Shown: positions 2,463 to 58,696 of the stretch, piece after piece
Layout of the letters: every line of letters begins with the position of its first letter
How positions within the stretch are numbered: the stretch's first letter is position 1
IMG/VR virus record: IMGVR_UViG_3300045391_004375
Location: 1-64,000 of that record
Strand: one strand, 5' to 3'
Source: a virus
Lineage: Duplodnaviria; Caudoviricetes
DNA: 64,000 nucleotides
Notes under the pieces: generated by a model
What the model was told of the DNA's origin: nothing
Databases searched by the model: none
Seen by the model: the letters and a program-made list of their open reading frames with translations, nothing else
Translations under genes and position numbers: made by a program

Positions 2463-2466
2463 GGGC

Positions 2467-2496
2467 TTGACAACTGAGTTGTCAGGGTGGTACGCT
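2467..2496 (+). promoter_or_regulatory. promoter with perfect operator
   Basis: TTGACA-N18-TACGCT; TGACAACTGAGTTGTCA 2468-2484. Confidence 0.75.
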
Positions 2497-3370: not shown

Positions 3371-3520
3371 ATGACGCTTGCAGCCGTGCTGTTCCTCATC
3401 GCGGGTGTGCTCGGCGTGGTCTCGATCTTCGTCGTGTCGCCCCGCTACAACCTGCTGGCCGGCGCGGTCGCCTTGACCGCCTTCGGCCTGTTCTGCTCCA
3501 CCGCCGGCATCGGCAGTTAA
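3371..3520 (+). CDS. small membrane protein
   Basis: 49 aa, two hydrophobic helices. Confidence 0.6.
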   Translation: MTLAAVLFLIAGVLGVVSIFVVSPRYNLLAGAVALTAFGLFCSTAGIGS

Positions 3521-3795
3521 TCGTCCTGGTAGTGGCCCTCCAGCAGGAGCGTGCAGGCCCGCACCAGGCCGAGTAGGTGATGCCAGGACGGCCGCATCTC
3601 CGGCACCAGCCAGGCGTACCGGGTGCCTTCGCTGTCCGGGCTGCTCGACGCGGTCAACACCACCCAGTCGGTGACCATCCGGTGGTCGCCGAACACCCGC
3701 TGGTAGTTGCTGATCGCCGCGTCGAGCTGGCGCACCGCCTCCAGCTTCTCCGGGGTGTCGTGGATGTACTCCCCGCTGCCCTCGGATTCGGTCAC
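3517..3795 (-). CDS. hypothetical protein
   Basis: GTG start, overlaps upstream stop, coding bias. Confidence 0.65.
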   Translation of the reverse strand: MTESEGSGEYIHDTPEKLEAVRQLDAAISNYQRVFGDHRMVTDWVVLTASSSPDSEGTRYAWLVPEMRPSWHHLLGLVRACTLLLEGHYQDD

Positions 3796-4022
3796 TGCGC
3801 CCCTCCAGCCGGCCGCTTGCGGCGCGAGCGGCGCCGGTTGGTGCTCGGCACTGCGCGTGGGTCCCCGGCCCTCCTGGCGCGCATCAGGGCCCGCTTGAAG
3901 GTGTACCGGGCCATGCCGAGCCGGTCGGCCACCTCTTCGTAGCTGTCGCCGAGGGGGGCGCGCTGCTGCCATTCGTTCAACAGTTCATCCCGGGACACCC
4001 CGGGCTGGTCGCCGAGCATCAC
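3792..4022 (-). CDS. small HTH-like DNA-binding protein
   Basis: SYEEVADRLGMARYTFKRALMRARRAGDPRAV. Confidence 0.6.
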   Translation of the reverse strand: MMLGDQPGVSRDELLNEWQQRAPLGDSYEEVADRLGMARYTFKRALMRARRAGDPRAVPSTNRRRSRRKRPAGGAQ

Positions 4023-4567
4023 GACCCGCCGGGGGCGTCCCGCTCGGTGACCTGGTACTCCGACTCGACACCCGCGCCTTCCGGGTCCTCGTCGTCCTCG
4101 ACGGTGATCTCCATCGGCGGTTCGGTCAACGGCTTGTACCGGGTAACCCACCGGCTGGCCGCGTTGACCAGCTCGTCGTACAGCGCCTGACCCTGCGAGG
4201 TGGGTGGGTCCGCGTCCACGCGGGGATCGGCCTGCGGAATCATCATGATCACGGTGTATGCCGCGTTCAGGGCGTCGCGCTGGTCGCTGAGCCGGCGCAC
4301 CAGGTCCCGCTGCACCGCCGAGTCGTAGGTGGTGTTGTTCGCCTCGTCGCCCCGGCCGGGCTCACGGATCCCGTCGTACCACCGGGCGCGCCACCGGACG
4401 CTCCTGTTGAACGCGTCGAGTGCATCGATCAGGACTCGGGCCAGGATGAAGTCCGGCGTGTTCGAGACGTTCTCGGCGGAGTGCCGGTTCAGCAGGCGGG
4501 CCAGCTCCCGCTCCAGCCCCTCGGCCGGGGTGATCTGGTCGGTCAACTGGCTGTTGTCGGTGTGCAT
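4019..4567 (-). CDS. hypothetical phage protein
   Basis: ENVSNTPDFILA motif common in phage proteins; operonic overlaps. Confidence 0.65.
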   Translation of the reverse strand: MHTDNSQLTDQITPAEGLERELARLLNRHSAENVSNTPDFILARVLIDALDAFNRSVRWRARWYDGIREPGRGDEANNTTYDSAVQRDLVRRLSDQRDALNAAYTVIMMIPQADPRVDADPPTSQGQALYDELVNAASRWVTRYKPLTEPPMEITVEDDEDPEGAGVESEYQVTERDAPGGS

Positions 4568-4575
4568 GGTGCCCC

Positions 4576-5304
4576 CTACAGGTTGCGATTGTCGACGTAG
4601 CCGGCCGGCTGCCGCCAGTGCCCGTGCTCGGCGTGGGCCAGGTAGTAGCGCTGCTCCGTGGTCAGCTTGTCCGGGTCCTCGTACCAGGGCAGGTGCACCG
4701 CCTCGACGTGGGCCAGCCGGACCGCCGGGTCGATCGCGTACGGGCGCAACCGCGGGTACATGGCCACTGTGGTGTCCACTGACGCCTCGAAGTACCACAG
4801 GTTGCTCCCGGCCGCCTTGCGCAGCCGGTCCGGGGTGCGGTACTGCGACTCCCACCGGTGGATCTGCTCGGTGCGCTCGATCTCCGGCGGGAGGTCCTGG
4901 ATGCGCAGGCTCAGTCCGGCCTTGACCACGTCGTGGCGGGCGTCGAGCAGTACACCGAGTTGGGTCACCCAGTCCACATCGGTGGGCACCACGATGTCGC
5001 AGTCGGTGACGATGAAGCGTTCCTCCGGCCGCACGATCGCGGCCAGGGTGCCGTTGGTCCAGATGTCACGCGGGTGCGCGTTGGGCTTCCAGTGCACGTG
5101 GATCCGCCCGTTCGGCTCCGCGCCCGGGTAGGCGTCGGACGCCCCGTAGGGGCCGGCCACCTGGCCAAGCCAGGTCAGCATCGGCTCGTATGTCGAGCCG
5201 TGGTCGACGATGTGAATGTCGGTGACGCCCGCGCTGTCCATCAGCGCGCGAACGCACTGCTTGGCGTAGCTGACCCGGTCCCGGGTGATGACGATGACCT
5301 TCAT
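4576..5304 (-). CDS. glycosyltransferase family 2
   Basis: VIVITRDR..IHIVDHGST..FIVTDCD (GT-A, DxD). Confidence 0.85.
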   Translation of the reverse strand: MKVIVITRDRVSYAKQCVRALMDSAGVTDIHIVDHGSTYEPMLTWLGQVAGPYGASDAYPGAEPNGRIHVHWKPNAHPRDIWTNGTLAAIVRPEERFIVTDCDIVVPTDVDWVTQLGVLLDARHDVVKAGLSLRIQDLPPEIERTEQIHRWESQYRTPDRLRKAAGSNLWYFEASVDTTVAMYPRLRPYAIDPAVRLAHVEAVHLPWYEDPDKLTTEQRYYLAHAEHGHWRQPAGYVDNRNL

Positions 5305-20744: not shown

Positions 20745-20795
20745 CAAGTTGATCTCACATAAAACGGCCTCTGGCCTGCACAAACACGAATATGC

Positions 20796-20824
20796 TTGAC
20801 AACTGAGTTGTCACGCACTACTGT
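20796..20824 (+). promoter_or_regulatory. promoter with perfect operator
   Basis: TTGACA-N17-TACTGT; TGACAACTGAGTTGTCA 20797-20813. Confidence 0.8.
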
Positions 20825-49146: not shown

Positions 49147-51180
49147 ATGGCGAAGACGGCACAGAAGAAGCGGCCGTCGCGCAGCGCGCTCGCGCCGAAG
49201 CTGCCGGAGATCCTGCGGCAGGCCCTGCACCCCGACGACGAGCGCCAGGACTCGGTCGACGACATCCTGCACGGATTGAAAGTGCTCGACGCCCAACGGG
49301 AGATCGCCACCGAGGCGGACGTCTTCTACGACGGCGAACTGGGCATGGTGTGGGCCTCGGAGAAGGTGCGCCAGCTCCTGGAACGCCAGGGCGTCGAAGA
49401 CATCAAGGACTTCAACTACGCCGCCGTCCCGGTCGACGTGATCGCCAACCGCCTGGAGATCAACAGTGTGGTTCCGGCGCCCGCCGAAGAGAACGAGGAC
49501 GGCCACCAGGTCGAAGAGGACGCCGCCGTCAAGGCGGCCAAGAAGGCCATCGCCGCCCTGCGCAAAGACAACCAGCTCGACGACGAAGAGGAGCACCTGC
49601 ACCTCAGCGCGAGCAAGCACGGCCAGGCGTTCCTGCTGGTGTGGCCGGTCACCGACGACGTCGGCAACGTGGTCAGCGTCGACATGCGCATGCACGACGC
49701 CCACACCATGGCCATGGTGTACGACCCGGAAGACCTGCTGGTCGCCCAGTACGCAATCAAGGCCTGGGACATCGAGATCGGCGGCCAGACCTGCGTCCGG
49801 GTGAACCTGTACTACTTCGGCGAAGGCAAGCACGGCCGGATCGAACGGTGGGTCACCGAAGGTGGCTCCAACCCGCAGTCGAAGGACGCGTGGCGCCCCC
49901 TCGTGGACGCCGTCGAGCACATCGACGAGTACGACTCGTCGGGCGAGTCCGAGGCCCCCGACCTGGCCGCCGACGAGTTTACCGACGACGAGGACGAGTC
50001 CGGCGACGACATCCCCAACCCGTGGGGCCAGATCGTCTTCCACTTCCGCAACAACCGGCCGATCGGCATCCCCGAGCACCGGCGGGCCTACGGCCCCCAG
50101 CAGATGATCAACAAGTTGATCTTCGCGCACGCCGGCACGATCGACTACCAGAGCTTCCCGCAGCGCTACCAGCTGGTCGACCCGATGGCCGACGACCCGC
50201 TGCAGAACATGGCCGATCCGATGCACCCCGACGACGATGACGACGACCCGGAGACCGAGGCCGGCGGGTCCGGCCTGCGCGCCGACCCGGCCACCGTGTG
50301 GCGGCTGTACGGCAAGAGCGTGGGTGAGTTCCAGGCGGCCGACCCTCAGGTGTTCCTCGGCCCGCTCGACCGCTACGTCAAGTCGATGGCCGAACTGACC
50401 GACACCCCGCAGCACGCGTTCTCGAAGGCCTCGGCCGACATGCCGTCAGGCGACGCGGTCCGGGAGCTGAACGGGCCGATGAACACCAAGGTGCTCAACC
50501 GGCGCCGCCGCTACGGTGCCACCTGGCAGGACAGCTACGAGAAGGCCCTGGAAATGATGGGCATCGAAGGTATCACCGTCGATGTCCGGTGGGCGCCCCT
50601 GGAAGTGGTCGCCGACGCCCAGGGCTGGGAAGTCGTCCAACTCAAGATCAACGCTGGGGTGCCGGTCGAGCAGGCCCTGGAAGAGACCGGCTACTCCTCC
50701 GACATGGTGGAAGGCTGGCTGAAAGACGCCACCGGCGCCGACCTGGGCCGGCGGGTCGCCCTGCTCAACCAGATCGGCACCGCTGTGCAGACCATCGGCG
50801 CCGGTATCGCGCTCGGCGCGGTCTCCAAAGAGCAGGCGCAGGCGGTCATCACCGGCATACTGAAGCTGACCATGGAAGGGGCCGACGTCGAGCTGCCGGA
50901 GAACCCGGACGACTTCGTTGACCCGCAGGCCCAGCAGGCTGCCATGCTGCAGGCCCAGCAGGAGCATCAGCAGACCCTCCAGCAGGCCCAGCACCAGCAC
51001 GCCACCGCCACCCAGCAGGCCGGCCACGAATTCCAGGCCCAGCAGTCCGAGGTGTCGTTCCAGCGCATGCAGGAGCAGATGCGTCAGGGCCGGCCGATCG
51101 GCGGCGGCCCACCGGGTGGTCAGCCACGCAACGGTCGTCCGGCCCGGCCCGGCCAGCCCCCCCGAGGTGGTCAGCAGTGA
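49147..51180 (+). CDS. portal protein (SPP1 gp6-like)
   Basis: follows terL; FYDGE..FNYAAVPVDVIANRL..HFRNNRPIG..PQRY. Confidence 0.85.
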   Translation: MAKTAQKKRPSRSALAPKLPEILRQALHPDDERQDSVDDILHGLKVLDAQREIATEADVFYDGELGMVWASEKVRQLLERQGVEDIKDFNYAAVPVDVIANRLEINSVVPAPAEENEDGHQVEEDAAVKAAKKAIAALRKDNQLDDEEEHLHLSASKHGQAFLLVWPVTDDVGNVVSVDMRMHDAHTMAMVYDPEDLLVAQYAIKAWDIEIGGQTCVRVNLYYFGEGKHGRIERWVTEGGSNPQSKDAWRPLVDAVEHIDEYDSSGESEAPDLAADEFTDDEDESGDDIPNPWGQIVFHFRNNRPIGIPEHRRAYGPQQMINKLIFAHAGTIDYQSFPQRYQLVDPMADDPLQNMADPMHPDDDDDDPETEAGGSGLRADPATVWRLYGKSVGEFQAADPQVFLGPLDRYVKSMAELTDTPQHAFSKASADMPSGDAVRELNGPMNTKVLNRRRRYGATWQDSYEKALEMMGIEGITVDVRWAPLEVVADAQGWEVVQLKINAGVPVEQALEETGYSSDMVEGWLKDATGADLGRRVALLNQIGTAVQTIGAGIALGAVSKEQAQAVITGILKLTMEGADVELPENPDDFVDPQAQQAAMLQAQQEHQQTLQQAQHQHATATQQAGHEFQAQQSEVSFQRMQEQMRQGRPIGGGPPGGQPRNGRPARPGQPPRGGQQ

Positions 51181-51785
51181 GCTGGGAAGAGGCGCTGCAC
51201 CCGCGCGACGAGTACGGCCGGTTCCGGCTGCGCGGCCTGACCGGCCGGTGGCGGCCCCACGCCAACGGCGAGACGTTCACCGACGCCCGGGGGCGGACCT
51301 TCGACTACGAAACCGGGTACATGCTCGACACCAACGCCATGCGGGGCGGCTGGATGCGGGTCGGTGACCTCCCGGCCGGCGTAGCCGATCAGGCCCCGGG
51401 TGGTCGACGCCGCCCCGGGGACCTGTCGAGCGGGGGTGCCTGGCACAAGCCGGGCGAGTACGGGCCGGGGCATGTGCCGATCTTGCGTACCGAGTACGGC
51501 ACGCCGCTGTCGTCGCTGCAGCCGGAGGACACCAAGACGTTGAAGTTCCGGCGGTCCACCGGCACCTCCTTCCGTCACGAGGTGTTGGCCGAGATCCTGA
51601 ACCGACGTACCCACGACCGCCTTGTGATCACTAACCCGAGCGAGGCGGCCCCGGAGGTGCGGGGATCGCACCTGTCCAGCCCGCTGAACCCGGTGGGTCG
51701 GCGGCGAGCCGCCAAGCAACGTTCGAAGCGTAGGAACAGTACGACCTGGATCCAGCGGCTGAATAACCAGATCGAGGGACGGTAG
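51177..51785 (+). CDS. HPRD-motif head-module protein
   Basis: N-terminal WEEALHPRDEYGRF. Confidence 0.65.
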   Translation: MSWEEALHPRDEYGRFRLRGLTGRWRPHANGETFTDARGRTFDYETGYMLDTNAMRGGWMRVGDLPAGVADQAPGGRRRPGDLSSGGAWHKPGEYGPGHVPILRTEYGTPLSSLQPEDTKTLKFRRSTGTSFRHEVLAEILNRRTHDRLVITNPSEAAPEVRGSHLSSPLNPVGRRRAAKQRSKRRNSTTWIQRLNNQIEGR

Positions 51786-51787
51786 CC

Positions 51788-54700
51788 ATGGGGAAGCGCA
51801 GCCTGCGGGCCCTGCACTGGGTGGAGGCCAAGCACCCCCGCGACGACCGGGGCCGCTTCTCCCACAAGGGTGGCCAGAAGTGGGCCCGGAAGGTCGCCGA
51901 CGAGCTGGGCGCCCGGTTCGGCGATATCCACATGGGCGCGGCCCCCGGCCGTGAGCCGCAGGGCAAGCTGCAGTCGTCCAAGGCCGGCGGGTTCCTGCTG
52001 AACACGAAGGCGGCATCGGCGGCCGGCCGGGACGCCGGGATGCGCGCGGAAGGCCACCGGCTGGTCACCGAACTGGGCGGGATCCGCAAGGAGCGGGGCA
52101 CCGGCGGCGGCAGCCCCGAGGGAATGCGCGAAGCCCTGAACAACAGCTCGGGCAGCTCCCTGAAGGCGACGGTCGCCCAGCTGCGCACCCACGTGCAGCA
52201 AGAAGGCGGCTGGCTGAAGGAGGAGCGGGCGGCGTCCGCCGGCACGATCTCGGTGGGCGACCTGAAGAAGGGCGACCACGCGAAGCTGGTCGGCCAGGAC
52301 GCCTACGGCAAGCAGATCTCCCTGAACGGCTACGTGCAGGGCGTCGGTGACGTCAACGTCCGCAAGGGCCGCAACCGCACCCCGATGAAGGCTGTTCAGG
52401 TGGCCGAGACGCCGTCGGGGGGCGGCGGCTGGCGGGGCACGGTGTACGTCAAGCCGGACCACATGGCCGAGAAGACCACGCCGAAAGCCGACGTGGCGCG
52501 CCTGGAGGGCCGCCGGCCGGGCGGAACGGTCCAGGTGGTCAACCCGGACGGCAAGGGCGGCTTCAAGGTCGAGGGGCGGATCACTCGGGAAGAGGCCGCC
52601 CGGCAGATGGGACTTGACAAGCCGGTTGGCGGCCGGAAGCCTGGAGGGGTGACCACCACCACGCCGAAGGCTCGCGAGCGGCGCGCCGAAGAACTGCGCA
52701 TCAGCAATGACCCGAAGGACAACGGCGCCAAGATCAAGGCCATTCAGGACGGCACGCTGGCCAGCGCCAGCCTGTACCGCAAGGTGGCCGCCGGCCCGAG
52801 CGGGCAGCGCTCCAACGTCGCCATGGGCCACATCCGGCACACCCCCGACAACCCGTCGGGTGAGTTCCAGATCAGCGACAGCGATGGGCGGCTGGTCGGC
52901 TGGGCGTCGCACACGGTCCGCAATGGCGAGCCGGTATTCTCCGTGCACTCCGAGAACTACGACGGGGAGCACCGCCTGGAAGGCTGGGCTGGGGAGCTGT
53001 CCACGGCCGCCGACGTGCTCATCAACGGTGAACACGCGGCCCGGGGCCGGCACGATTCCGAGCGCATCTCGAAGGGTTCCTTCGAGTCGTACGCCGGCAA
53101 GAACATGTCGGTTGACCAGCTGGAGCGTCACGGCAACCGGCAGGAACTAGCCAAGGTCAACAAGGAGCTGGAGAACCCGGACCTTGCTCCCACCATCCGC
53201 GCCAGCCTGGAGCGGAAGCGGACCCAGCTGGAGGCCGACTTCGCCGAGATGATCGGTGCGTCGAAGACCCCCACGCCCAAGGCCCCGGAAGCGCCCCAGG
53301 ATCGGCGCATGGCCGAAGTTACCCGCATCGAGAACGCGCGAGCCAACTTCGGCAAGGGCGAGGCCTCCAAGGCCACCGAGGTGGGCCGCAAGCCGGGCGG
53401 CGGTTACCAGTACAGCGACTACTCCAAGGCCCACCACGACATGGGCAACCTGACCGTCGCCGAGGCTGGATTGCCCGACAAGGGCGCGGTGCACTCCCAG
53501 TACCAGGGGATGCTGCGCAGCATCAACGAACTGAAGCGGCAGGGCCCGGCCCGGGTCGGCTCGAAAGACCAGTACTACCGGCCGATGACCCGCAAGCTCG
53601 AAGAGGCCGCCCAGTACGTGCACGAACACGAAGGCAACCCCGACACGGTGGCCAAGCTGCGGGCCCTCGCCGACATCCACCGCCCCCACACCGACACCGC
53701 CCCCAAGCTGGTCAGCGGCGCCGACATCCGCTCGCAGCGGGCCGCCATGGCCTCCAGCCTCGGCGTCGACATGAACGACCCCAACCGGTGGACCCGCAGC
53801 CTCGGCGACGTCCGGCAGGAAGTCATCAGCAAGGCGATTCGGGACATTCCGCAGTACTACACGCACAAAGACCTGATGGACGCCCAGCAGCGGCTCAAAG
53901 ACACCTCGATCCACGACACGGAGGCGATGGACGCCGCCGCGCTGAACCTGCACCGCATCGGCGACGAGATCCGGGCTAAGCAGGACGACCTGAAGGCCGT
54001 CGGCACCCGGTTCCGGACCGCCCTGGAGGCGGCCGGCGGCCTGGCCGACCAGGAGGCCGCCGTCAAGGCCGACCTGCGCCGGATCAAGAAGGAGAACGGC
54101 ATCCCCGGCGATGCGGCCATCAAGAAGTTGCCGAACGGTGAGCGGCAGGCCGCCGAGGCCGCCCTGTTCGACATCCAGAAGGCCACCCGGGCGCGGGTGG
54201 CCCGGGAGAACAACCTCAAGCAGGCCAAGATCGGCCGGGAAGTGCTGGCCAAGGGCGGCATGCACCCGGACAACGCCGCCGAGCTGGAAAAGCGGATCAA
54301 GAACGTTGAGGGGGGCGCGACCGCCGAGCAGGTGGCCCGGGACGAGCGCGAACGGGACCTGGCCCTGGCCGTGTGGCGACACGCCAAAGACAACTCCGGC
54401 ACGACCGGCGAATACCCGGCTGACCACCTGAAAGGTCTCGACGCCGAGGAGCAGATGGCGGTCACCGTGATGGCCCGCAACGTCGGCCTGAACGCCGCCG
54501 ACGAGCTGGCCCAGGATCTGCGCGGCCAGAAGGGCCTCAAGGCGCCGAAGGCGAACACCGACTACACCGGGTTCAGCGAGTCGCAGACCCGGGCCCTGCG
54601 CTCGATCGAGAATGACCCGCTCCGGCACGCCCAGGTGCGGGAAAACTTCGGCCAGGCCAACGCCGCGCGGGCCGCCGACGAGGCGAAGCGGGCCAAGGAG

Positions 54701-55678
54701 CTGGCCACGGTGTCGGCGGTGGCATTGCCCGAACCGTCGGTCAGCCACGCCGACCAGGAGGCCGCCCTGGAGGCTCTCGCCAAGCAGGTCGACCCGAACC
54801 GGTTCAAGGGCGGCAAGATCTTCAACAACCACGTCATGGAGGGCGCCTACTCCGGATCCATCCAGGACGCCTACGGTAAGCGGGTCCTCAACTATGACGG
54901 CCGCAAGGGCACCTGGACCACCAGCAACGGCGGCCAGCTGGCCCCGAACCAGGTACATGCCTACATCACCGAGTACAACCGGCACGACCAGTTCGACCGG
55001 AACCCGAACTACCTGAAGTCCATCGTGGACAAGCAGGTGGCCCCCGAGTTCCCGGCCCAGACCGGCGGCGGCACCCGGGGTGGTGGGAGCGTGGTCGCCG
55101 ACCTGCGGAAGATCTCCAACGGTTCCGTCGGTAGCGTCGCCAACGACCTGGAGTCGGGCGACGTCACCCCGGCCGAGGCGGCCGACCGGTTGGACCGGAT
55201 CGGCCGGCAGCGGGGCCTGGACGGACGCACCCGTGGTCAGCTCAGCGCGGCGGCCCAGCGGCTGCGCGCCCAGAGTCGGGAAGACCTGGGTCTGAACCGG
55301 CCGGCCCCGGCCGGCGCGCGCATCGAGACGACCCGGACCGGCAACATCAAGAAGCCGCCCAGGACGCCCAGCTCGAAGCCGGGTAGCCGCACCGAGCAGG
55401 TGTTGCGGGACCTGCACGCCGAGCTGGCCAAGCACCCGGTCAGCGAGCAGAAGATCGCGTTCTCCGACGCCACGATCCGCGAGGTGGTTGGCAGGCTCGC
55501 CGACGAGGTGGCCCAGGGCAAGATCTCCGAGGATGAGGCCCGCAACCAGCTTGACCGGCTGCTGGGTCGCGCGTTCAACTACGCCAAGAGCGAACAGTCC
55601 GGTACCCACGGGGCCCTCAAGAAGGCCACCGACGCCCTCGCGGCGGCGGCGGGACGGCGGCCGGGGGGAAAAGCGTAG
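51788..55678 (+). CDS. large (1296 aa) HPRD-motif head-module protein, putative ejection/polyvalent protein
   Basis: N-terminal WVEAKHPRDDRGRF; between portal and MuF; strong coding bias. Confidence 0.7.
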   Translation: MGKRSLRALHWVEAKHPRDDRGRFSHKGGQKWARKVADELGARFGDIHMGAAPGREPQGKLQSSKAGGFLLNTKAASAAGRDAGMRAEGHRLVTELGGIRKERGTGGGSPEGMREALNNSSGSSLKATVAQLRTHVQQEGGWLKEERAASAGTISVGDLKKGDHAKLVGQDAYGKQISLNGYVQGVGDVNVRKGRNRTPMKAVQVAETPSGGGGWRGTVYVKPDHMAEKTTPKADVARLEGRRPGGTVQVVNPDGKGGFKVEGRITREEAARQMGLDKPVGGRKPGGVTTTTPKARERRAEELRISNDPKDNGAKIKAIQDGTLASASLYRKVAAGPSGQRSNVAMGHIRHTPDNPSGEFQISDSDGRLVGWASHTVRNGEPVFSVHSENYDGEHRLEGWAGELSTAADVLINGEHAARGRHDSERISKGSFESYAGKNMSVDQLERHGNRQELAKVNKELENPDLAPTIRASLERKRTQLEADFAEMIGASKTPTPKAPEAPQDRRMAEVTRIENARANFGKGEASKATEVGRKPGGGYQYSDYSKAHHDMGNLTVAEAGLPDKGAVHSQYQGMLRSINELKRQGPARVGSKDQYYRPMTRKLEEAAQYVHEHEGNPDTVAKLRALADIHRPHTDTAPKLVSGADIRSQRAAMASSLGVDMNDPNRWTRSLGDVRQEVISKAIRDIPQYYTHKDLMDAQQRLKDTSIHDTEAMDAAALNLHRIGDEIRAKQDDLKAVGTRFRTALEAAGGLADQEAAVKADLRRIKKENGIPGDAAIKKLPNGERQAAEAALFDIQKATRARVARENNLKQAKIGREVLAKGGMHPDNAAELEKRIKNVEGGATAEQVARDERERDLALAVWRHAKDNSGTTGEYPADHLKGLDAEEQMAVTVMARNVGLNAADELAQDLRGQKGLKAPKANTDYTGFSESQTRALRSIENDPLRHAQVRENFGQANAARAADEAKRAKELATVSAVALPEPSVSHADQEAALEALAKQVDPNRFKGGKIFNNHVMEGAYSGSIQDAYGKRVLNYDGRKGTWTTSNGGQLAPNQVHAYITEYNRHDQFDRNPNYLKSIVDKQVAPEFPAQTGGGTRGGGSVVADLRKISNGSVGSVANDLESGDVTPAEAADRLDRIGRQRGLDGRTRGQLSAAAQRLRAQSREDLGLNRPAPAGARIETTRTGNIKKPPRTPSSKPGSRTEQVLRDLHAELAKHPVSEQKIAFSDATIREVVGRLADEVAQGKISEDEARNQLDRLLGRAFNYAKSEQSGTHGALKKATDALAAAAGRRPGGKA

Positions 55679-55697
55679 GCCCGACGGAGAGCGGGCC
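55666..55697 (+). other. putative -1 programmed frameshift site
   Basis: G GGA AAA heptamer 55666-55672 in correct phase two codons before TAG; hairpin GGCCCG/CGGGCC 5 nt downstream; -1 frame open to 57747. Confidence 0.65.
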
Positions 55698-55796
55698 CAC
55701 GGAGGAGCCGAAGATCATTCGCGGCTCGTTCACCGGCGGCATCAGCGCGAAGACCGGCAAGAAGATCCAGCCCAAGCCGGTCCGACCCATCCGACC

Positions 55797-55819
55797 GCTT
55801 GACAACTCAGTTGTCAAGC
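55797..55819. promoter_or_regulatory. perfect 23-bp palindromic operator containing TTGACA
   Basis: GCTTGACAACTCAGTTGTCAAGC. Confidence 0.75.
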
Positions 55820-55833
55820 CGGAGGATGGAGGC

Positions 55834-57747
55834 ATGCCAGCCACCATGCCAGCGGCCCGCCTGTCGAAGCTCGACACCCCCGCGCTGATCGAGCAGTACG
55901 ACCAGGCGATCTCCAGCCACAAGGGCCGGTACACCGACACCGCGCCCCGGCAGCAGCGCATCAACAAGATCGTCGACCTGTTGACGGAGCGGGCCGACGC
56001 CGACGACCCGGACGCCCTGGCCTGGTTCGAGAAGGAGCAGAAGACCCCCAGCGGGTCAACCGCCCGCAAGGCCGCTCCCGGAGAGCCCACGCTGGGCGTC
56101 ACCACCTCGGCCCGGGGCCGCACCACCACGGTGACCCTGCCCGACGGCACCACCGAGCAGCGCACCAGCAAGACCCGCGAATACACGCACGCCGTGGTGG
56201 TCACCGCCGACAACCACAACGACGCCACCGACCTCCAGGTGGACAACGCCCGCCGGCAGAAGTTCGTCGATGCCCTCCAGCAGTGGATCAACGAAGGTTC
56301 GGACACCTCCAAGCTGAAGGGGTACCCGACCGGTTCCCTCTCCCACGCGGAGCGGCAGGCCGGCGTCAAGCCGACCGAGTACTACCTGCCCGGCTTCGAG
56401 CCCACCCGGGTGCAGGGGCGGACCGGCGACACCTGGGAGAACACGGAGTTCAGCCTCCCGAACTTCAAGGACACCCGCAAGCTGAGCTGGGCGGACGGCC
56501 GGACCGAATGGGAGGAGTACGGCCCCGAGCACGTACTGAAGCGCAACCAGGAAACCATCGACAAGCAGGCCAAGAAGGCTGACCAGCTCCTTGCCGGCCC
56601 CCGCTACAGCTACGGCGTGTGGCGCTGGTCCAGTTCTCCAACGGCCGCCCAGGCCGCCGCAAGCCAGTTCGGCAACTACCGCAACCGCTCCACCCAGGTG
56701 ATCGGGGTCGGGGGGGTCGCCGAGGCGAAGAAGGCGACCAAGCCGGTGCTGAGCGCCGAGGAGAAGGCCGCCCAGGCCGAGGTGCGCAAGCTCGCCGCCA
56801 AGGCTGCCGAAAAGGCCCGCAACGAGGCCAGTAACGCCGAATTCGTTCAGCGCAAGCTCAAGAGTGTGGCCGAGCGGGTCACCAGTGGCGTGGACACCCC
56901 CGACACTGCGCTGAGCACCGTCAATGACCGTGGTCTGAGCGTGCTCGCCAAAGAGCTGGGCGTGAAGACCCCGCGCGGCTACCGGACGAACCGGGCGATC
57001 AAGGACGCTTACGAGCGGTCGATCGTCGAGGCGATCATGGCCCGCGCCAACGCGCGCAAGAGCGCCGCCCGGCTCGCCGACGCCGAAGCCGCCGCCCAGA
57101 AGGCCGCCGACCGCCTTGAAGGTGCAGCAGCCCTCAACTCGGCCCCCGCCAAGGTCCGCGACGGCAAACTGTCCCTCCCCGGCTGGGGCGACGGCGAGCG
57201 GGCCGACGCCGCCGATGCCCTGGAGCACTACCGGGACGTGGGCTTCGCCGACCTCAACCGGGACCTGCGGGCCGGCGTACCCGGCTCCGACAAGGGTCGG
57301 CAGACCACCGCCACCGTCGACAAGGTGATGGCCGCCTCTCCGCTGCCCCAACCGGTCACCGTCCACCGGGGCGTCGAAGACGCCGGCCACTTCAAGGTCG
57401 GCCAGGTCATCACCGACCCCACCTACAGCTCCACCAGCGTCGACTTCGCCGTAGCGAAAGGCTTCGCCGGCAAGGGCGGGGCGGTCCTGCGCATGCAGGT
57501 CCCCGCCGGGGTCGGCGCGGTCAACCTGTCCGACGTGCCCGGCGCCCGCCCGGACGAACGGGAAGGGGAACTGCTCCTGCAGCGCGGCCTGCGCTACCGC
57601 GTGGTCAGCGAATCGACCGTCAACGGGGTGCGGGTGTTCGACGTCGTGATCGAACCCGGCCCCATCACGCCGGTCCGGGCGGGCACCGGGCGTCGCCCCG
57701 GCGGCAGCCGACCGGCCGGCCCGCCGAAGTTCCGCCCCCGTGGATGA
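55834..57747 (+). CDS. protein with C-terminal VIP2/Alt-like ADP-ribosyltransferase domain
   Basis: LEHYRDVGFADLNRDLR..VTVHRG..YSSTS..EREGELLLQRG (R-S-E triad); frame open upstream to slippery site. Confidence 0.85.
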   Translation: MPATMPAARLSKLDTPALIEQYDQAISSHKGRYTDTAPRQQRINKIVDLLTERADADDPDALAWFEKEQKTPSGSTARKAAPGEPTLGVTTSARGRTTTVTLPDGTTEQRTSKTREYTHAVVVTADNHNDATDLQVDNARRQKFVDALQQWINEGSDTSKLKGYPTGSLSHAERQAGVKPTEYYLPGFEPTRVQGRTGDTWENTEFSLPNFKDTRKLSWADGRTEWEEYGPEHVLKRNQETIDKQAKKADQLLAGPRYSYGVWRWSSSPTAAQAAASQFGNYRNRSTQVIGVGGVAEAKKATKPVLSAEEKAAQAEVRKLAAKAAEKARNEASNAEFVQRKLKSVAERVTSGVDTPDTALSTVNDRGLSVLAKELGVKTPRGYRTNRAIKDAYERSIVEAIMARANARKSAARLADAEAAAQKAADRLEGAAALNSAPAKVRDGKLSLPGWGDGERADAADALEHYRDVGFADLNRDLRAGVPGSDKGRQTTATVDKVMAASPLPQPVTVHRGVEDAGHFKVGQVITDPTYSSTSVDFAVAKGFAGKGGAVLRMQVPAGVGAVNLSDVPGARPDEREGELLLQRGLRYRVVSESTVNGVRVFDVVIEPGPITPVRAGTGRRPGGSRPAGPPKFRPRG

Positions 57748-58696
57748 TCTTCAGCTGCTCGCGCTGGAAGCGCAGGTCCGGGACACCGTCGTCACGGACC
57801 TGCGCGGTTTCCTTGACGAGTTGCTGCGCATCGGCACGGCCATCTATGTAACCACGGCCGGCTCCACCCACCACAAGCTGCCCGAACACGCCCAGGACAC
57901 CCTGCGCGGCCTGCTCGTCGAGCAGCTCGACCGGATGCGCCGCTACCCCTACCGGGAAGTCCGCCAGGCCCTCCAGCACGGCGCCCAGCAGGCCCTGGCG
58001 ACCGGCTCCTACGACACCGGACTGATCGGCCCGGTGGTCAGCCGGATCTCCGGCACGCTGCCCCTGGACATCCGGGCCGCGCTGCCCGCGCTCACCGCCG
58101 GCATCCGCGACGACCTGCACGCCGCCGCCCACCTGGCCCGTAGCGGCCCCCTCGACCGGTACGGCGACCTCATGTCGGTGATCGCCACCGCCCGACGGGC
58201 CGTCAACCGGGCCGAACAGACCACCACCTTCGTGATCCACCGGGCCCACGCCGAAGGTGTCCAGCGGGCCATCGACCGGGCGGCGGCCGGCGGCATCGAG
58301 GTGGCCACACTGTGGCTGGCCGAACGGGACGCCTGCGCGGCCTGCCTCGGCTACGCCGGGGCCCTCGCCGTGCCCGGCGAACCGTTCCTGCCGGTGTTGT
58401 CCGTCCAGGACCCGTCGGCCACCGTCTACGGGCCGGTGTGGGGGCCGCCGCTGCATCCGCACTGCCGGTGCCGCACCGAACCATGGTTCGGTGGCCTGGA
58501 CATCACCCCGGTGGACCTGCCGCACGCCCTGCGACGCGAAGCCCAGCGTTCGATCGCCGCCGGCACCGCCATGGGGAGCCGACCAGCCCGCCTGCGGGCC
58601 GCTGGCCGGCTCGTTCAGGCGGCCGGTCTGCTCATCCCGAAGACGGTGGTCAAGCGGGCCCAGCGGGCCGTCCAGGCCGGCACGTTCGAGCGTTAG
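57740..58696 (+). CDS. MuF / SPP1 gp7-like head morphogenesis protein
   Basis: LWLAERDACAAC..PPLHPHCRC. Confidence 0.8.
   Translation: MDDLQLLALEAQVRDTVVTDLRGFLDELLRIGTAIYVTTAGSTHHKLPEHAQDTLRGLLVEQLDRMRRYPYREVRQALQHGAQQALATGSYDTGLIGPVVSRISGTLPLDIRAALPALTAGIRDDLHAAAHLARSGPLDRYGDLMSVIATARRAVNRAEQTTTFVIHRAHAEGVQRAIDRAAAGGIEVATLWLAERDACAACLGYAGALAVPGEPFLPVLSVQDPSATVYGPVWGPPLHPHCRCRTEPWFGGLDITPVDLPHALRREAQRSIAAGTAMGSRPARLRAAGRLVQAAGLLIPKTVVKRAQRAVQAGTFER

Follow-up and report, generated by a model that had tools for sequence, protein, structure and literature searches.

In a 64,000-nucleotide stretch of DNA from a tailed virus (Duplodnaviria; Caudoviricetes; positions 1 to 64,000 of IMG/VR virus record IMGVR_UViG_3300045391_004375, hereafter the window), two long open reading frames (ORFs) stand one behind the other among the head genes. 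ORF1 (51788..55678, plus strand) encodes in the zero frame a giant modular head-region protein of 1296 aa; ORF2 (55834..57747, plus strand) encodes 637 aa, including an ADP-ribosyltransferase (ART) domain, in the −1 frame relative to ORF1. Judging from the sequence, we consider it very probable that the ORF1/ORF2 junction is a site of programmed −1 frameshifting that makes a 1986-aa fusion with ORF2 as its C-terminal part. We favour this reading because the junction is conserved in related phages, because fused homologs exist, and because domains placed behind the same signal in relatives have no usable start codon.

The proposed slip site and the −1 linker

ORF1 ends with CCG GGG GGA AAA GCG TAG, which places the slippery heptamer G GGA AAA (55666..55672, plus strand) in the X XXY YYZ phase. 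The zero-frame stop, TAG (55676..55678, plus strand), stands one codon past the heptamer; its location is fixed in relatives, where the codon is TAG, TAA or TGA. Across 73 genes (61.6 kb) of the 80.8-kb genome, no in-phase XXXAAAZ other than the junction heptamer occurs. Both codons of this heptamer are rare, GGA accounting for 6.2% of glycine codons and AAA for 12.7% of lysine codons; a Gly-Lys pair written in this way suggests selection at the nucleotide level, and we counted it in favour of frameshifting. Close behind the heptamer lies a GC hairpin (55678..55697, plus strand), in which GGCCCG (55678-55683) pairs with CGGGCC (55692-55697) across an 8-nt loop. The fold can be extended to 55674-55701 (−22.3 kcal/mol), and relatives keep its GCCCG..CGGGC stem unchanged, around loops of 3-8 nt. 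The hairpin is a candidate frameshift stimulator; it could also be a terminator.

From the slip site the −1 frame reads KSVGPTESGPTEEPKIIRG...PEDGGM and continues without a stop into ORF2. The 54-codon linker (55672..55833, plus strand; SVGPTESGPTEEPK...KPEDGG) is read in the −1 frame only, and in this frame neither a stop nor an ATG, GTG or TTG occurs before 55834. The G+C content at third codon positions (GC3) of the linker is 0.82 in the −1 frame versus 0.59 and 0.54 in the other two; between the hairpin and a palindrome that precedes ORF2 (described below), the third position is G or C in 30 of 33 codons (binomial P = 9e-4). Compared with L005, a 96% identical relative, the linker of the window carries a 90-nt (30-codon) in-frame insertion. 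The length of the predicted fusion is 1295 + 54 + 637 = 1986 aa. The original prediction, made from the letters of this stretch and a list of its ORFs, had described the heptamer in slippery phase, a 6-bp hairpin 5 nt past it, an open −1 frame with coding-like GC3 in the linker and a fusion of about 1986 aa, and all of these are borne out. A non-canonical start within the linker (GGAGGAG followed by ATC or ATT, ~55702-55719) was also considered and is unlikely; it is absent from L005 and other relatives.

Conservation, natural fusions and domains without a start

Relatives in which the giant protein is split in the same way were retrieved by ORF2 protein similarity, not by motif. The first to be retrieved were L005, L006-L009, L010 and L088-L091, and L092, L097 and L098 were added later. 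A scan of viral contigs with the single ORF2 sequence found no relative, while an alignment-based scan did. We counted 11 split loci: the window, L005, L006, L010, L088-L092, L097 and L098. Each of the 11 has GGGAAAA or CCCAAAA in phase, a stop one codon on, the hairpin, and a conserved core domain or an ART in an open −1 frame. The giant upstream ORF ends in [G/P]-K-A-stop, encoded as (G)GGA AAA GCG or (C)CCA AAA GCG. The protein sequences immediately upstream of the slip site are unrelated among these loci; thus, the conservation is at the nucleotide level. Gaps between the stop and the next start measure 155, 65, 83, 83 and 35 nt, with 53 nt at a further site in L016, and all of them equal 2 modulo 3. 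Hence the heptamer and the open −1 frame, whose presence in related phages had been proposed as a check, are kept in all split loci despite differing linker lengths. The two cases named beforehand as refuting, a split relative without the heptamer and a stop in the −1 linker, do not occur among the split loci.

These elements appear to form a portable slip signal of ~30 nt, which consists of X XXA AAA, one codon, a stop and the GCCCG..CGGGC hairpin. In 20 of 20 such cassettes the base in front matches the triplet, with G before GGA and C before CCA. Scanning IMG/VR for the 15-mer AAAAGCGTARGCCCG gave 66 distinct contexts. Where a homopolymer triplet stands in front, 9 of 13 contexts lie at the end of an ORF of 200 codons or more, with 90 or more open codons in the −1 frame; where it does not, none of 53 has both properties (Fisher P = 2e-8).

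The same protein parts occur in one piece elsewhere. A profile search with the core domain of ORF2 (56065..57033, plus strand; ORF2 residues ~78-400, GRTTTVTLPDGT...YTHAVV...LPGFEP...RWS) returned 31 proteins at an E of 1e-30 or better, and 32 family representatives were examined. Fifteen of the 32 consist of one ORF, 1094-2081 aa long, in which the core lies close to the C-terminus and the start carries the N-terminal tag that ORF1 has at residues 11-24 (WVEAKHPRDDRGRF; 51818..51859, plus strand); in these 15 long fused homologs the tag (W.E..HPR...GRF) lies at residues 8-18. One homolog, P0029 (1965 aa), holds the tag, an ART, a mobile module that we call D, and the core, all in one frame. 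The DNA of L093/L094 (1898 codons) and of L095 (1504 codons) likewise carries one unbroken ORF, and L095 has matches to the N-terminus and D module of ORF1 as well as to the core of ORF2. The natural in-frame fusion that the original prediction had suggested looking for in related phages therefore exists and is common. Module D itself (52673..53239, plus strand; ORF1 residues ~296-484, ~190 aa, DPKDN..ADLYR..HTPDNPSGEF) is missing in L005, follows the slip site in L088, L091 and L010, and stands behind the core domain in a single ORF in L092. Since it is found on either side of the slip site, ORF1 and ORF2 appear to belong to one modular protein whose parts swap across the joint.

In some relatives, what follows the heptamer lacks a start of its own. 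The ART domain (PF03496) of L097 occupies residues 31-181 counted from the heptamer, and the first in-frame start is a TTG at residue 92, in mid-domain; as read from this sequence, the whole domain would be obtainable through the slip only. The public gene call (3377-3677) starts the ART at this mid-domain TTG, and an 82-aa antisense ORF fills the gap. The slip would explain this annotation error, in which the ART is cut and a spurious antisense gene takes the place of the lost part. Four database proteins of the family, P0002, P0003, P0010 and P0024, have artificial starts at or near the slip site. In L097 the hairpin also occurs a second time (GCCCGCAGGGCGGGC, read as SPQGG; ~3960-4080, P0017 residues 95-135). 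This copy sits in frame between the ART and the core, is accompanied by neither a heptamer nor a stop, and looks like the remnant of a joint that is now fused.

The L016 locus (minus strand) has two cassettes in series, with slip sites at 4532 and 8398, such that a 485-codon ORF would slip into a 1291-codon ORF1 homolog, which would slip in turn into a 140-codon tail domain. The first cassette is directly followed by a TTGACA element, with an ATG 53 nt past the stop. At the second site the 140-codon −1 ORF has a GC3 of 0.92, its first start codon is codon 105, and the domain it encodes is C-terminal in fused homologs. In L060 (9606-10385) the cassette precedes a GH25 lysozyme with a peptidoglycan-binding domain; the GH25 domain spans residues 10-187, and the first start is at codon 33. 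It further precedes a GNAT acetyltransferase in L034 (minus strand, slip at 691) and a HExxH metalloprotease-like module in L103 (965) and L104 (minus strand, slip at 4581). Thus, use of the cassette is not confined to the ORF1/ORF2 junction.

A proposed mechanism and its alternatives

We propose that most ribosomes would read through GGA AAA GCG and terminate at TAG, releasing the 1296-aa ORF1 protein. Some would pause at the GC hairpin while GGA occupies the P site and AAA the A site, slip back by one base to GGG AAA, and read the 54-codon linker and ORF2. The resulting 1986-aa protein would begin with the tag and modules of ORF1, continue into the core domain and carry the ART in its C-terminal part. 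ORF2 is probably also made alone, either from a leaderless transcript that starts at its ATG and is driven by a TTGACA element, or by initiation at a GGAGG Shine-Dalgarno site. Slipping at the ORF1/ORF2 site and its efficiency, as well as packaging into the capsid and the target of the enzyme, are what we infer.

The TTGACA element in question is promoter-like (55798..55827, plus strand). Its −35 box, TTGACA (55799-55804), belongs to the palindrome CTTGACAACTCAGTTGTCAAG (55798-55818) and is separated by a 17-nt spacer from GAGGAT (55822-55827), whose end stands 6 nt ahead of the ORF2 ATG; the possible Shine-Dalgarno site GGAGG (55821-55825) lies 8 nt upstream of this ATG. The palindromic TTGACA element, CTTGACAACT(G/C)AGTTGTCA, occurs three times in the window (2466-2486, 20795-20815 and 55798-55818) and not at all in shuffled sequences. 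The other two copies are intergenic and lie 17-18 nt before TACGCT/TACTGT (TAnnnT) boxes, upstream of genes led by Shine-Dalgarno sites. The element is likely a phage promoter with an overlapping operator. The same promoter-like geometry is present in L005, L006, L090 and at the first L016 site. The translation of the palindrome ([L/V]DT[S/P]R...GG[M/V]) recurs inside the fused giants, always 12 codons before an M or a V. Free ORF2 is therefore probably made as well, from the promoter-like element or the Shine-Dalgarno site. The original prediction had spoken of stoichiometric control of a capsid-loaded enzyme; this needs qualifying because ORF2 has its own Shine-Dalgarno site, ATG and promoter-like element.

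Several observations weigh against frameshifting. The signals just described make ORF2 expressible without any slip, and the succession of hairpin and promoter would also suit a terminator-promoter boundary. The folding energy of the hairpin, whose stem is short, is not significant relative to shuffled sequences (z = −1.7 in the window, −2.9 to +0.1 in relatives), and the invariance of the stem means that it gains no support from covariation. At 69% GC, frames without stops arise often; L089 has no stop in the same frame for 160 codons before the heptamer. Because the cassettes are related by descent, the tallies of conserved phase are partly interdependent. Finally, every phage known to carry the cassette is uncultured, and a 32-nt cassette query against GenBank phage records returned chance matches only.

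The main alternative is that ORF1 and ORF2 are two ordinary genes with no meaningful frameshifting between them. The stop, hairpin and palindrome would then form a terminator-promoter boundary or a recombination joint for module exchange, and ORF2 would be expressed from its own start. The placement of TTGACA-17-GAGGAT and GGAGG just ahead of the ATG, the occurrence of the palindrome in two true intergenic regions before TAnnnT boxes, and a terminator-like hairpin right after the stop, with a stem conserved in sequence and no covariation, all agree with such an arrangement, and modules are clearly shuffled among the relatives. However, a boundary of this kind needs no in-phase heptamer matched to its homopolymer in 20 of 20 cases, no rare GGA or CCA plus AAA codons and no gaps of 2 modulo 3, and it leaves the coding-type GC3 of a linker without a start unexplained. 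Moreover, in relatives the ART, the GH25 and the conserved C-terminal domain begin at the heptamer without a usable start, and a terminator at the hairpin would sever these domains. We regard two separate genes as an unlikely explanation.

A second alternative is transcriptional slippage, in which RNA polymerase slips on G6A4 and produces mRNAs that differ by one base, some of them encoding the fusion. The ORF1 run before the stop in the window is indeed six G followed by four A, and polymerase slippage here would yield the same protein as a slip of the ribosome. Yet known transcriptional slippage needs longer homopolymers, of about 7 or more A or T, and relatives have GGGAAAA or CCCAAAA only, with no longer run. 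The conserved stop and a hairpin at 5-6 nt fit a ribosomal mechanism, and polymerase slippage seems to us very improbable. Least credible of all is an assembly or sequencing error that split one real gene: homopolymer runs are error-prone and continuous versions of the gene are known in other phages, but the same split, with the stop exactly one codon past the heptamer, is seen in 11 or more independent assemblies, obtained from different samples and on different platforms, with all three stop codons in use and unrelated upstream sequences, a pattern that a single-base error would not yield.

Programmed −1 frameshifting thus remains the reading we prefer for the ORF1/ORF2 junction. More broadly, the loci suggest that a clade of uncultured high-GC phages joins giant-protein modules, located between the portal and capsid genes, via this signal; other members of the clade encode them as one continuous ORF. 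On a still wider hypothesis we are evenly divided. It holds that, in a clade of uncultured actinophages, a portable recoding joint, used repeatedly and up to twice in series at one locus, strings ART, HExxH protease, GNAT, GH25 lysin and a SAP-like tail onto giant head-region proteins, and that interspersed TTGACA promoters restart expression at a leaderless ATG or GTG in the same frame. The outcome would be a graded, nested set of cargo proteins in fixed ratios, with fusion and splitting interconverting readily in evolution. If the slip at the ORF1/ORF2 junction is real, programmed frameshifting in tailed phages would serve not just for small extensions of chaperones and capsid proteins but also for the assembly of 200-kDa effector-bearing proteins. 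It would provide a simple means to set how much enzyme-armed protein is made relative to the plain structural or cargo form. Being short, defined in sequence and apparently portable, the signal is also a candidate tunable recoding element for high-GC Gram-positive hosts, and the motif can be used as a search key for more recoded genes.

Known systems, protein modules and genome context

That tail chaperone genes frameshift at G GGA AAN is textbook knowledge. Cultured actinophages use GGGAAAG or GGGAAAA for the chaperone frameshift, and in a cultured Streptomyces phage the annotated chaperone frameshift falls within CCGGGGGGAAAG. The tail assembly chaperone gene of the genome studied here ends with CAG GGA AAC TGA (genome position 70038, outside the window); its −1 ORF (70038-70397) has 119 codons and a GC3 of 0.87 and ends just before an 861-aa tape measure gene at 70411. 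The ribosome of the host is therefore already expected to slip on G GGA AAN beside a stop, and the chaperone site serves as an internal control for the junction. The original prediction had cited GGGAAAA as the slippery site of actinophage tail assembly chaperones, and this holds for Microbacterium phage Bush (PMC11749239). The junction resembles the G/GT chaperone system of lambda and the actinophages in its G GGA AAN heptamer, in the stop close behind, and in short and long products that would share an N-terminus. It differs in that a 1296-aa head-region protein and a 637-aa enzyme-bearing protein take the place of two small chaperone parts, in that the fixed spacer codon, stop and GCCCG hairpin recur as a unit at several kinds of junction (twice in L016), and in that the downstream ORF has a start of its own. 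In T7, a −1 slip near the end of head gene 10A yields the minor longer form 10B, an extension of ~50 residues with no enzyme; here the extension would be 691 residues including an enzyme domain.

ORF1 and ORF2 also recall the polyvalent proteins, giant modular proteins that are encoded next to head genes, contain effector enzymes including ARTs, and are predicted to be delivered with the DNA (Iyer et al. 2017, PMC5512222). Shared features are the large size, the multiple shuffled modules including an ART, and a location after the portal gene and ahead of the MuF-like, scaffold and capsid genes; unlike in polyvalent proteins, the modules here would be joined by recoding or furnished with internal starts. 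A text search of that paper gave 0 occurrences of frameshifting. The domains described for polyvalent proteins (ART-PolyVal, LPD and similar) were not among the Pfam matches, which comprised only PF03496, in ORF2 and P0029; ORF1, P0016 and P0021 had no match. The PRFect study lists VIP2 ART/MuF-like gene pairs among predicted frameshifts that it scored as false positives (PMC10885494), a software-only hint, from other phages, that such pairs may be joined by frameshifting. This remark aside, we found no account in the literature of the cassette or of polyvalent proteins joined by frameshifting. What is already known is thus chaperone frameshifting at G GGA AAN on the one hand, and giant polyvalent phage proteins with ARTs, described without frameshifting, on the other.

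The ART domain of ORF2 (57208..57618, plus strand; residues 459-595) matches PF03496 (E = 7e-10, 38.9 bits versus a cut-off of 23.4) and phrog_3895. Its motifs occur in the order R (HRG511), STS533 and ExE (EGE577), and by profile and motifs it is assigned to the C3/VIP2-type R-S-E ADP-ribosyltransferases. MuF polymorphic toxins and MuF-ART fusions likewise carry a VIP2/C3-type ART (PF03496) attached to a head-morphogenesis protein; a MuF domain (SPP1 gp7 / Mu F) gave no match in Pfam or PHROG for ORF1 or ORF2, and a weak one only in the next gene. The comparison of this enzyme with T4 Alt, made in the original prediction, is sound in that Alt is a packaged and injected ART (PMC5512222). By analogy, ORF2 is a late-module ART that could load into the capsid and act on the host at injection. 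Unlike it, Alt is a stand-alone protein of another ART family and is loaded via a cleaved leader, whereas here PF03496 lies at the end of a modular giant.

Other parts of the two proteins are less recognizable. ORF1 matches no Pfam and no PHROG family, and Pfam searches of five long homologs returned the ART only, plus sub-threshold SAP and DUF1015 matches. A structure model of the core domain (predicted local distance difference test score, pLDDT, 83.8) had no Foldseek match in the PDB below E = 0.09, and a wide VIA structure search gave helical-hairpin matches only, at a background level of Z ≤ 5.6. The N-terminal tag is shared within the locus: both ORF1 and the 202-aa protein encoded after the portal open with W.E..HPRD..GRF. 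It is a candidate capsid-loading or portal-binding signal, and together with gene position it leads us to infer that the ORF1 products are loaded into the capsid. The tag is present in the more distant proteins P0038 and P0047, too. A GR[RK]PGG motif occurs four times in ORF1 (52508-52525, 52631-52648, 53384-53401 and 55652-55669) and once near the end of ORF2 (57688-57705); the last ORF1 copy overlaps the slippery site, and similar GRxPGG motifs lie near module borders in the relatives P0017 and P0034. From their sequence, these motifs may be processing sites of a head protease.

The virus record, whose first 64 kb make up the window, is 80,815 bp long, has a GC content of 69% and carries direct terminal repeats. 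The order of genes around the junction is portal (49147-51180; PF05133 / phrog_104), the 202-aa protein (51177-51785), ORF1, ORF2 and a 318-aa weakly MuF-like protein (57740-58696; weak phrog_115 and phrog_24918 matches), then scaffold and capsid genes as in relatives. DNA and protein searches of GenBank phages with ORF1, ORF2 and the junction gave no match. The portal protein is ~30% identical to portals of cultured Streptomyces phages, and the host is therefore probably an actinomycete. In cultured relatives such as Streptomyces phage KimJongPhill (portal 30% identical), the portal gene adjoins the MuF gene directly, without ORF1 and ORF2. In the L006 and L090 loci, the gene between the portal and the giant ORF encodes 506-544 aa that include an anthrax-lethal-factor-like metalloprotease domain (PF07737 ATLF), and its product is a candidate for another packaged enzyme.

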